Shown piece after piece: positions 30,704-34,090 of a DNA stretch of 64,000 nt. The notes below the pieces were generated by a model. That model was not told the origin of the DNA and made no database searches. It saw only the letters and a list, made by a program, of their open reading frames with translations. The first letter of the stretch is position 1, and every line of letters begins with the position of its first letter. The stretch covers positions 2,976,001 to 3,040,000 of the forward strand of contig NW_026250403.1 of NCBI RefSeq assembly GCF_024521635.1. The letters are read 5' to 3'. Origin of the DNA: Tricharina praecox (lineage: Eukaryota). Position numbers and translations under genes: made by a program.

Positions 30704-32240
30704 TTTCTGGATGATAACGATCCTCGTGGTGATGGTTGTGTTTTGTGATCTATGAGCGAAGAGAGCAGTGTGGAGAAGAAGGAACTGTGGGAGGACGTGT
30801 CTTTAAAATGAGGAAGATACGCGGAGAGGGAGTGTGAGTGTGTGTGCGGTGTGAGTGAGAGGGTGAGTGAGGTGTGAGTGAGGGTGGAGGAGAGGTGAGG
30901 TAGCTTCGGACAGAAACTAACTACTAACTGCGCACCCGCTGGTTCATGTATGCTCAGAGCAACTCTAAGTGACGGACTCCCTTTGAGACAACCCGACAGC
31001 GGAACAACAAGCAAGGAGACTACGCAAGCTACACGCTCAGTTGTATCGATCTTTGGGTGGTGTTTACATTACTGAGAAGTATCCGAATTACTTAGAACAG
31101 CGAGAGGAGCTGTTCATCGCATTCCAATTCGACATGTTTCGGGCGAAAAAGTATAGCCTGGCCATGCACCGTTTGGCATCTCTTATGAACAGAGAGACCA
31201 GGCAGAACTTGGGGGAGACGGGGATTCGGATACACAGTACTGATGGAACCCGAAACGGCGGAATACCGAATCACGAACTAAAAAAACTTCTTGGTTTGAA
31301 CGCGAGCAGCTGGACCTCAAGACAAGCATAAAACGAGGATGTCAATCCGCCACGTTTACCATCAAATTAGCTTTGCTAAGCTCCAGTCACTGTCCCCGCA
31401 ACATACCCCTAGTTCCGCTGCCCCCCGCAGTCTTTCCTCCTGTGACTTGCCCTGGCACTATACTCCAACCCGCGCTCGAACAGGAGACTGGTGCACAATC
31501 ACGGTACGCATTGCCATCATTAGTAATCACTCGTCGATGCGTTTCCAAGCCGAAGAGTCGGCACTCGGAGGGGGTTATACATGGCAAGAAAGTCAAAGTC
31601 GACTTACAAAGTTGCGAAACGTAATTTCGACATCGTAGCTGGGGAAACCTTATATCAACATACACTAATCCCTGTACATTGCAGCGAAGCTTCCCCGAGT
31701 TTCTATCGATGCCGTGTCGTCTCCGATCGACGTGAACTCGCCACTCCATAGGTTGGGTCGACATCTTGCGTCCCGAGAAGTTGGTTCTACACAGTCCATC
31801 CGGTCGCCAGCGGCGTTCAGCCCGGATAGTCGCCGGTACCATTCGGGCATCAGGACGGCGCCTCAATCCCGAATAAAGCTTACGTTACATACAGTTACGG
31901 GCACTAGTTGAAGGCTGAAGCGTATCGACACATAGGTGAGCCGAGCCCCAAACGACAGTATGTCATGGCCCTGCTGCAGGCTATACTAGGTTATCTGTGT
32001 GTGAGCTCGAGCTTATCAGCACGTAGCTGGAAAGCCCGAAAGCCTATGGGGCATTGCTTCTGCGCACATCGCAAGCTCTCTGCTTGAGTAATCGTTGCAC
32101 GAGCCTTTTGAATGCAGTCAATGAATAAACAACAAAAATAAAGCACGAGCCTTTTGAAGCTCGAGTTTGAGACCCTTCTCAGGTACACCTCTTGGAAACC
32201 TCCAAAGAGAACTTCATCGTTACATTCAGAGAGAGAGAAA

Positions 32241-33847
32241 CTACAAAATCGCACCGAAACTAGATTACAACACGAGCCAGCAGTTAGTACTGTCGACCCA
32301 GAAAGAGAAAACAGAACAAAACTAAACACAAAATAAGATGGAGCGGCAGCGGTTTCGTCAACTCATATACAACCTGGCCACATATGCAGCGGCGGCTGCG
32401 ATGGCAGCCCCGACAAGTACAGGACCCATTATTTCAAGTGTCATATCCTGCCAAGAGGCTCCCTTTATAACGACGCTGGTCTTCTTTGCTTTATGTTTCT
32501 TGGGTGCAGACGACGATGAAACAACACGACTGGGGAAGGAACCTGCGTACCCAAAAGTAGCCTTGATGCTGCGGACGTAATAGTCCTCAAAGTTCCTCTT
32601 GCTGACCTCATCCTGGCCGACAGGAACGCCAGTCCAGGTGACTCTCAGGTTGGTCGAGTCGCTGCCCTGATCGAAGACCAGGTTCATAGTTGAGTAGTGG
32701 TCTAGAAAACATCAGCACTGATACCAGTTACGACGGGATCCCACTCACCCTTTGGCCAGGAGCCCAGTCTCCAGTCCTGAATGATCTTCTTGTTCTGTTC
32801 TAGTGTCTTGAAAGTACCCACAACGTTTCCGCCAAATAGGTTGAACTTTCCACCCTCCTTGGGCTCAAACTCCTGTGGGGGTGTCCGGGTGAAAGCCGTC
32901 ACACGCTGCGGGTCGACAAACGTCTGGTACAGCTGCTCCGCCGAAGTGTTGAACTCGTACGTCTCCGAAACTGTAACGGTGTTAAGGACCCTTCCCTTGG
33001 AGTGCGCAGTCTCTGCCGATTTCGACGGCTTTGCGGCGGCCTGAGCGGAAGAGGAGGTGGTGGTAGCAGTGGTGGCAGTAGTAGCAGCTTTCTTAGCCGG
33101 ATCGGTAGCAGGAACGTGCTGAATATCCTTGGCATGGTGCTCGATCAAGTCTGGAGAAAGACGGGCAAAGGCCTTGCGGAGCTGAGGGGTAATCTGGGTG
33201 CGGACGAGATCGCGAATCACCTGCTTGTCCTTGGTATCCGCGTAGTTGCTGATATCGAACTATGGGCTTGGAGTGAGCTGCTGGAAGACTTACTCGAACG
33301 CGTGCGGGTAGGATGAACATACGACGTACTCGCCTTCCTCGGTGTCGTGAGCAACCTCGGGAATAACGATGGTGCCATTGGCCTCCACGCCATCAGCGTT
33401 CTTGCCTATTCAATGTCAACAAAGCGTATTGTTGGGTGTTGCGCCGACTAGGAGATACCAGAGTATTCGAGCTTCACCACGAGGTCAAAGATAGTAACGA
33501 CCTTGCCCTTCCGCTGGTTGACATCACAGTCGCCCTCAATGCTCAGGACCTTGGTGATCTTGGCCGAGACGCCGTTCTCTTCAGCGGAGATGACAGTGAG
33601 ATTCTCTGAGAAGTAATCCTTTGTCCACTCGCGGGCGTCCTTGTTCACCCAGTGCCCTGACGTTGAAACAATTAGCTTTCGACGCATCCACCATGGCGAC
33701 CATCAATACACGTGGTAACTGCGGGGAAGACGCGTACAGTTGCTGTAGCCGAAAGAAAATGACAGACACGTCAGAAAAGTTCACATAACAAATATCGAAA
33801 CACACGTATTCTCGTATGGTGACTTACTTGGGGTTGTGGAGAACCAT
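32241..33847 (-). CDS. AHA1: Hsp90 co-chaperone Aha1; 6 exons including a 5-nt micro-exon; the spliced form ends TFGFGAIL*
   Basis: MVLHNPNNWHWVNKD, SIEGDCDVNQRKGKVVTIFDL, TIVIPEVAHD, FNLFGGNVVG, IIQDWRLGSWP and DYYVRSIKATFG. Confidence 0.93.
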
Positions 33848-34090
33848 TGTGATGTGTCAAAGCTGGTGTCAAAGTTAAGCCGCGGAATCGGAGTTTCGGA
33901 GACGTAAAGTTACGCACCAGTGTTGGAGGGGAATTGATGGGCTAGTGTATGTCAAGTTTTAACAAGAGACACGAATGCAAGTAAAAGTAATGTGGAAGAA
34001 GATAGAGTTGAAGTTGGAGTTGAAGATGGCGTGAGAGTGAGAGCGGGAAGACAAGATCCGAGGAGGAGGTTGGCCGTTATCAGGCTTAGT

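Follow-up and report, generated by a model that had tools for sequence, protein, structure and literature searches.

We analysed a stretch of 64,000 nucleotides (nt) from the genome of Tricharina praecox (Pezizales, Pyronemataceae), positions 2,976,001-3,040,000 of contig NW_026250403.1. We call this whole stretch the window, and all coordinates given below are window positions. On its minus strand lies AHA1, a gene of seven coding exons whose canonical product is an activator of the Hsp90 ATPase of 328 amino acids (aa). The subject of this work is the last intron of AHA1, in which the reading frame stays open and encodes a linker and a putative transmembrane helix. With moderate confidence, we favour the reading that the Pezizales have a conserved minor isoform of Aha1, made through intron retention, that would be tail-anchored.

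The AHA1 locus and its last intron

RNA contigs from four runs, the small runs X1 and X2 and the metatranscriptomes X3 and X4, were compared with the window over 31900-34050. Those of X1 and X2 bear out every AHA1 junction, and those of X3 and X4 cover parts of the gene only, not reaching the last intron. The gene and the parts of its last intron are laid out as follows.

32241..33847, minus strand: AHA1 coding region, with exons 33847-33828, 33742-33738, 33656-33459, 33405-33323, 33259-32749, 32701-32551 and 32259-32241
33738..33742, minus strand: microexon CAACT, 5 nt, seen as AGTTG between both sides of the joint in contigs of X1, X2 and X4
32260..32550, minus strand: last intron, 291 nt, phase 2, with donor GTACGC (32550-32545), branch point TACTAAC (32289-32283) and acceptor TAG (32262-32260)
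32433..32549, minus strand: Ser/Thr/Pro/Lys-rich linker of 39 residues, including PKKHKAKK; from translation, and aligning with the tails of relatives
32376..32432, minus strand: putative transmembrane helix of 19 uncharged hydrophobic residues, IMGPVLVGAAIAAAAAYVA, with a mean Kyte-Doolittle value of 2.0
32358..32375, minus strand: five-residue end RLYMS and stop codon TGA, from translation
32260..32357, minus strand: non-coding remainder of the intron, T-rich in sequence (42% T), with branch point and acceptor

The spliced product is a regular Aha1 orthologue that ends, as is typical of the family, in FGFG..L; its last exon (32259-32241) completes ...KATFG-FGAIL, followed by the stop. It has 917 homologues at E<=1e-20, the best named of which are Pezizales proteins called 'activator of Hsp90 ATPase', with 53-88% identity. 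Aha1_N (PF09229) is found in the translation of exon 3 (Pfam E 3.5e-21, 76 bits against a cut-off of 23.6), and exon 5 carries the end of this domain (21.7 bits). AHSA1 (PF08327) is spread over exon 5 (E 7.1e-13, profile positions 1-74) and exon 6 (E 2.6e-5, profile positions 75-124 of 125). The profile thus reaches position 124 of 125 right at the donor of the last intron, and therefore the fold is complete ahead of the switch point. Both domains that define Aha1/AHSA1 proteins are present and complete here, and what distinguishes the retained form is its linker and C-terminal hydrophobic helix.

The last intron is far longer than the remaining six, which measure 47-85 nt. When it is read through, 63 open codons follow the shared Gly (32549-32361, 189 nt) and lead to a TGA stop at 32360-32358. 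The initial annotation had described a donor GG-GTACGC at 32550, the perfect branch point, the TAG acceptor at 32260 and the resulting KATFG-FGAIL end of a 291-nt intron, and all of this is confirmed, on the minus strand. Its 63 further codons, with a Ser/Lys linker, a hydrophobic helix of about 19 residues and the end RLYMS, are likewise reproduced by translation. The donor belongs to a form, GTAYG, that supplies a Tyr codon where common donors bring in TAA or TGA, which is necessary for the frame to continue. The retained form is already in public use: the deposited T. praecox 'activator of Hsp90 ATPase' (386 aa) matches it at 100% identity, so the public gene model is the intron-retained form.

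The encoded tail has the build of a candidate tail anchor. Five residues follow the uncharged run of 19, and the helix is only moderately hydrophobic (Ala/Gly-rich), as judged on the Kyte-Doolittle scale. There is no other hydrophobic segment in the protein, the highest mean over 19 residues being 0.62 within residues 1-323, which leaves no place for a signal peptide or a second membrane segment. On an alignment of tails, AlphaFold2 places no secondary structure in residues 1-30 (confidence score pLDDT about 50-57) and predicts one helix over tail residues 31-62, with a pLDDT of 82-93 over residues 41-60. Basic flanks, which the initial annotation had linked to mitochondria or peroxisomes, are found in part. 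A basic cluster lies about 20 residues ahead of the helix, and the charge behind the helix is +1 in T. praecox, Ascodesmis and Discina. However, this charge is 0 in Wilcoxina and in the homologues P0004 and P0121, and D and E stand directly before the helix. The charge pattern singles out no organelle, and a choice of mitochondria or peroxisomes is a guess.

Searches with the tail point back to AHA1 itself. Pfam gave no match for the 64-aa tail, and a word-based protein search with the tail alone matched the T. praecox protein only. A HMMER search against 1.84 billion representatives returned a single match, the 84-aa P0121, which is part of a further AHA1 of Pyronemataceae type and has the same tail; as only an AHA1 fragment is found, the tail belongs to no other protein family. 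A profile built from nine tails retrieved six full-length inputs (not the short P0121), with E-values that are circular for these inputs, and one further protein, P0122. The ESM Atlas gave no usable feature match for the tail, and its structure rows were short-helix matches without meaning.

How surprising is such a tail in a single species? Shuffles of the intron leave at least 63 codons open in 966 of 20,000 cases. Among 5000 open shuffles of the 189 nt that code for the tail, 11 have an equally hydrophobic stretch no more than 12 residues from the end, as do 8 of the 587 six-frame open reading frames (ORFs; >=60 aa) in the window. These figures are suggestive: the tail is an unlikely feature for a given intron, yet it is not decisive in a window that was read for oddities. 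The weight of evidence rests on the comparison with relatives, not on chance in a single species.

Some further features of the gene are of use to curators. The microexon is flanked by introns of 85 and 81 nt and is required for the conserved NNWHW near the N-terminus. In an alignment, precisely the residues of the microexon are absent from the deposited proteins of Wilcoxina mikolae (P0003) and Pyronema domesticum (P0008), so their gene models probably miss it. A 55-nt intron in the 5' untranslated region (UTR), at 33863-33917 on the minus strand with donor GTGCGT, is removed in contigs of X1, X2 and X4. At the other end, the main X1 contig continues for at least 340 nt beyond the AHA1 stop, plus 204 nt past 31900. 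This long 3' run is either a 3' UTR of about 0.5 kb or the result of a contig that merges with a neighbouring transcript.

Spliced and unspliced transcripts

The main AHA1 mRNA of T. praecox is spliced. A 1689-nt contig of X1 (depth 1140) splices all introns, including the joint 32259/32551, at which it 'skips 291', as well as those around the microexon and the 5' UTR intron. A 1674-nt contig of X2 (depth 960) shows the same full splicing, with 32551 joined exactly to 32259. This joint in both contigs establishes that the intron and the canonical FGAIL end are real and that the main mRNA encodes the canonical end. A second, minor contig of X1 covers part of the intron.

32249..32505, no strand given: minor RNA contig of X1, 257 nt, with a depth of 78.8 against 1139.8 for the spliced contig (about 7%), which crosses the acceptor into the intron from exon 7

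This contig spans the entire helix-coding part. It shows unspliced RNA, not necessarily a mature retained mRNA. The lack of contigs over the short introns in X1, or over the last intron in X2, was not counted as evidence, since holes of this kind prove nothing.

The retained form is found at full length in a second species, that of the 90% cluster of P0004. Here two contigs, 1387 and 1360 nt long, each carry the complete 377-aa retained form, and a canonical form of 325 aa, 99% identical to the retained form, is found on contigs of up to 1183 nt. A complete 377-aa frame within about 1.4 kb implies that the upstream introns and the microexon junctions have been processed and that the last intron alone is kept, as judged from these lengths. 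The initial annotation had proposed an isoform that arises by retention. The retained contigs of the second species and the minor X1 contig speak for this, and the spliced main mRNA of T. praecox in X1 and X2 does not.

Relatives, coding constraint and rival explanations

We surveyed the C-terminal ends of 121 Aha1 homologues, 120 listed of the 917 plus P0121. The great majority are short-ended after the TFG motif (103/121), 96 of them with FG and three residues and seven stopping right at TFG; three more, with a motif missed by the pattern, end in FGFGTIL. More than six residues after TFG are found in 15 of the 121 homologues listed. There are twelve extended tails of Pezizomycete type, and eleven of these contain an uncharged run, 18-28 residues long, that ends 0-12 residues before the C-terminus. 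The eleven come from T. praecox, Wilcoxina mikolae, P0004, P0121, Ascodesmis, Discina gigas, P0122, Morchella sextelata, Tirmania, P0029 and Rhizina, and the one tail without such a run is that of Tuber magnatum. In the eleven, the hydrophobic run is mostly preceded by a Ser/Thr/Pro-rich stretch that is net basic.

The tails of the Pyronemataceae form a colinear alignment. In BLASTP comparisons of tails, Tricharina matches Ascodesmis with E 8e-5 and Discina matches Morchella with E 1e-5. The tails of Tricharina and Discina have their build alone in common (E 0.027 over 8 residues). In the deposited models of Wilcoxina, Discina, Ascodesmis, Morchella and Tirmania the tail replaces the FGFG..L end that is usual in most relatives.

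For a comparison of DNA, metagenome contigs were scanned with Aha1 motifs alone, regardless of any tail, and the 80 loci found were sorted by what follows the TFG codon. The motif is missing from six; in 49 it is followed directly by FG..L, these being spliced transcripts or loci without an intron, and 25 have a GT donor. Among these 25 intron-bearing loci, 12 have a donor of the GTAAGT or GTGAGT type, which means an immediate stop, with introns mostly of 47-69 nt; the other 13 run on. Three loci are Pezizales-like: L029, with an intron of 267 nt, and L001, which is identical to L045, with 296 nt. Their frames stay open for 55 codons in L029 and 65 in L001, with terminal hydrophobic stretches of mean Kyte-Doolittle 2.09 and 2.29, respectively. 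The distance from stop to acceptor is 98 nt in the window, 98 nt in L029 and 97 nt in L001. An open frame with a hydrophobic helix in orthologous last introns is present within the Pezizales, in L029 and L001. In loci outside the Pezizomycetes, immediate stops after the donor, which the initial annotation had named as counting against its reading, and missing introns make the feature lineage-specific.

The chief alternative to a conserved isoform is splicing noise combined with an annotation artefact. On this account an ordinary, longish intron is open by chance and through shared ancestry, a small percentage of transcripts is sampled before splicing, annotation pipelines chose the longer ORF in some genomes, and the product, should there be one, is functionless. 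We regard this as rather unlikely. Gaps in the ORF part are of 3 and 21 nt between the window and L029 and of 3, 6 and 3 nt between the window and L001. All five are multiples of three, whereas only 2 of the 14 gaps that these alignments show in the remaining AHA1 introns are (Fisher p=0.0018); in the non-coding remainder, the gaps against L001 are of 2 and 3 nt, and thus not all multiples of three. The ratio of nonsynonymous to synonymous differences (pN/pS), taken in the true frame, comes to 0.55 for the window and L001 (p=0.0015) and to 0.61 for L029 and L001 (p=0.012). In the two shifted frames it lies at 0.88-1.41, and against L001 values below 1 are seen only in the true frame; for comparison, exon 6 has a dN/dS of 0.06-0.11. 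The window and L001 agree at 59% of sites in the ORF part, as against 49% in the other introns (160/327; p=0.026), 49% in the part after the stop and 70-83% in exons. A substitution-only neutral simulation, started from the window tail, puts the probability that the open frame and the terminal hydrophobic stretch both survive at 0.03 for the divergence of L029 and at 0.005 for that of L001. Noise also sits poorly with tails of the same build in at least six Pezizomycete families, two of them pairwise alignable, and with the full-length, mRNA-sized retained contigs that were assembled twice in the second species. In these sequence comparisons the retained stretch appears to evolve as coding sequence, and together the results would fit a coding stretch under weak constraint that is translated only rarely, as a disordered linker with a membrane helix might be.

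There are, however, a number of observations that weigh against a functional isoform and for noise. The main contigs of T. praecox are spliced in both X1 and X2. The minor contig, at its low depth and in one of the two runs, stops short of the donor and could be pre-mRNA or a splicing intermediate, and X2 has no intron-containing contig, although short variants may be lost in assembly. All five contigs of transcript length from the species of L029 carry the canonical form. Most of the surveyed proteins end shortly after TFG, and the extended protein models are ascertained, as they are visible because their frames are open. The DNA comparison leaves out the Pezizomycetes with canonical models, Pyronema domesticum, Geopyxis, Peziza echinospora and Terfezia. 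The closest pair, the window and L029, gives no significant constraint (pN/pS 0.67, p=0.28), and all codon alignments were guided by protein alignment, which biases pN downward. In this pair, differences at codon positions 1, 2 and 3 number 15, 9 and 14, and identity is 79% in the ORF part and 78% in the rest of the intron. At 0.43-0.48, the G+C content at third codon positions of the tails is below the 0.63-0.80 of exon 6; the tails thus lack a codon bias like that of the exons.

A control from the Eurotiomycetes shows how chance tails can arise. In four AHA1 loci of this class (L031, L033, L059 and L060), the homologous intron measures 148-177 nt, and in two of the four it reads through into a hydrophobic tail. 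In L033 (which is Thermoascus) and L031, the hydrophobic residues (Leu, Phe, Ile and Val) come from translation of the branch point and polypyrimidine tract, and the common GLARFSD-type end arises from the FGTIL exon in a wrong frame. The tail is not kept in two close relatives: L059 stays in frame through to FGTIL, and L060 meets a stop after 39 codons. The tails of Thermoascus and Arachnomyces were considered as conservation beyond the Pezizomycetes and were rejected, as the DNA shows a polypyrimidine tract and an out-of-frame exon. The hydrophobic tails of these Eurotiomycetes are by-products, and this too counts against the Pezizales isoform, as 'membrane tails' from retained introns can be artefacts of composition. 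In the Pezizales, by contrast, a G+C-rich stretch much further upstream encodes the helix, and the stop precedes the T-rich tract.

A second alternative, which we consider improbable, places the constraint on the RNA. The intron would be a regulated (detained) one that sets the dose of AHA1, for example under heat, its conserved blocks would be splicing-control elements or a stem between donor and branch point, and the retained transcript would stay untranslated. A block of 15 nt just inside the intron, TTCCCCAGTCGTGTT (32537-32523, minus strand), is indeed identical in the window, L029 and L001, synonymous sites included. RNAalifold pairs part of this block with bases right behind the branch point, which may bring donor and branch point together. 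Between the window and L029, moreover, the whole last intron is 78-79% identical, including the part after the stop, slightly above the 75% (240/322) of the other introns. The predicted stem has no covarying pair among only three sequences (RNAalifold -30 kcal/mol, with a covariation term of -2), which is too little to claim a structure. A search for known RNAs, such as an intron-borne small nucleolar RNA, in 32150-32650 found no support in Rfam, where the only match at E up to 10 was a chance one to IRES_Bip, with 8.3 bits against a gathering score of 40. An RNA element also leaves unexplained the in-frame indels, the absence of stops, the conserved position of the final stop and a helix that is kept despite a changed sequence.

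Cleavage and polyadenylation inside the intron, which the initial annotation had offered besides plain retention, is a most improbable source of the tail form: no pointer to it was found among contigs that cannot show RNA 3' ends, no AATAAA was seen by eye in the 98 nt after the stop, the minor X1 contig crosses the acceptor into exon 7, and the retained contigs of the second species are 177-204 nt longer than its longest canonical contig (1183 nt), as expected for retention.

A candidate membrane-anchored Aha1 and known systems

No stronger accelerator of the Hsp90 cycle is known than Aha1, which is regarded as a soluble protein. In T. praecox, most transcripts lose the last intron and give the soluble co-chaperone of 328 aa. 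If the Pezizales do have a conserved tail-anchored isoform, we envisage that the ribosome would read on from exon 6 where the intron is left in, and the 189 nt would act as a weakly constrained coding extension. The last five residues would thereby be exchanged for a flexible, basic, Ser/Pro-rich linker of about 40 residues, one hydrophobic helix and a very short end. The helix would insert into a membrane post-translationally, with both Hsp90-binding domains facing the cytosol on a tether of about 40 residues. As the helix is moderately hydrophobic and the end bears almost no charge, our best guess for this membrane is the mitochondrial outer membrane or the endoplasmic reticulum (ER); the guess draws on general knowledge of tail-anchor sorting. 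Stimulation of the Hsp90 ATPase would then be brought to that membrane surface.

A broader proposal is that AHA1 has two addresses throughout the Pezizomycetes. The spliced form would be cytosolic and the retained form anchored at the mitochondrial outer membrane or the ER, with a ratio that is perhaps shifted by stress, for example by heat in fire-following fungi. We put this forward as a tentative possibility. The available part of one study dates the split between Morchellaceae and Tuberaceae to more than 200 million years ago (PMC12581995).

Our search of the literature, which covered titles and the beginnings of abstracts, found no report there of a membrane-anchored, tail-anchored or intron-retention isoform of Aha1. 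FKBP8 (FKBP38) of animals comes closest as a working analogue. The accessible portion of one source describes it as an Hsp90-binding co-chaperone with a C-terminal transmembrane domain that holds it at ER or mitochondrial membranes, where it couples Hsp90 to clients (PMC13470449). FKBP8 is a TPR/FKBP protein with a constitutive anchor and a demonstrated function; here, in contrast, the protein is Aha1, the ending would be made by retention and the function is a proposed one.

There are also precedents for endings hidden behind a normal C-terminus. Freitag and colleagues have reportedly described a case of cryptic peroxisomal targeting through alternative splicing. Minor, C-terminally extended isoforms of fungal housekeeping proteins hide peroxisomal signals behind the normal end and are made by stop-codon readthrough or alternative 3' processing, according to the excerpt available (PMC4207609). 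Those extensions end in the tripeptide of peroxisomal targeting signal 1 (PTS1), for import into peroxisomes, whereas the AHA1 tail holds a putative membrane helix and its switch is the retention of a whole intron. SKI7/HBS1 is an example of old alternative splicing that gives two proteins per gene and is kept across many fungi, and such events are described as rare, as far as the accessible text of the two sources goes (PMC3597508, PMC7491326). It differs from AHA1 in being another gene, in using alternative splice sites rather than retention and in having no membrane anchor.

Aha1 has already been seen close to a mitochondrial membrane. In yeast it co-eluted weakly with newly made signal-anchored proteins and bound the cytosolic domain of Tom20 more than that of Tom70, as stated in the available part of the report (PMC9355564). 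In Tom70/Tom20 docking, Hsp70, Hsp90 and their co-chaperones act at the outer membrane and the receptors recruit soluble Aha1, whereas here Aha1 itself would be anchored.

These results matter for anyone who uses AHA1 sequences in phylogenies or structural work, as the deposited proteins of T. praecox and several relatives represent the minor retained form and some models also miss the microexon. If the proposed isoform is real, it would be the first membrane-anchored Aha1 and would stand among the few old, conserved splicing switches that diversify proteins in fungi, adding a rare case of old intron retention with this effect. A whole class of fungi would then site Hsp90 activation at the surface of an organelle, much as animals do with FKBP8.

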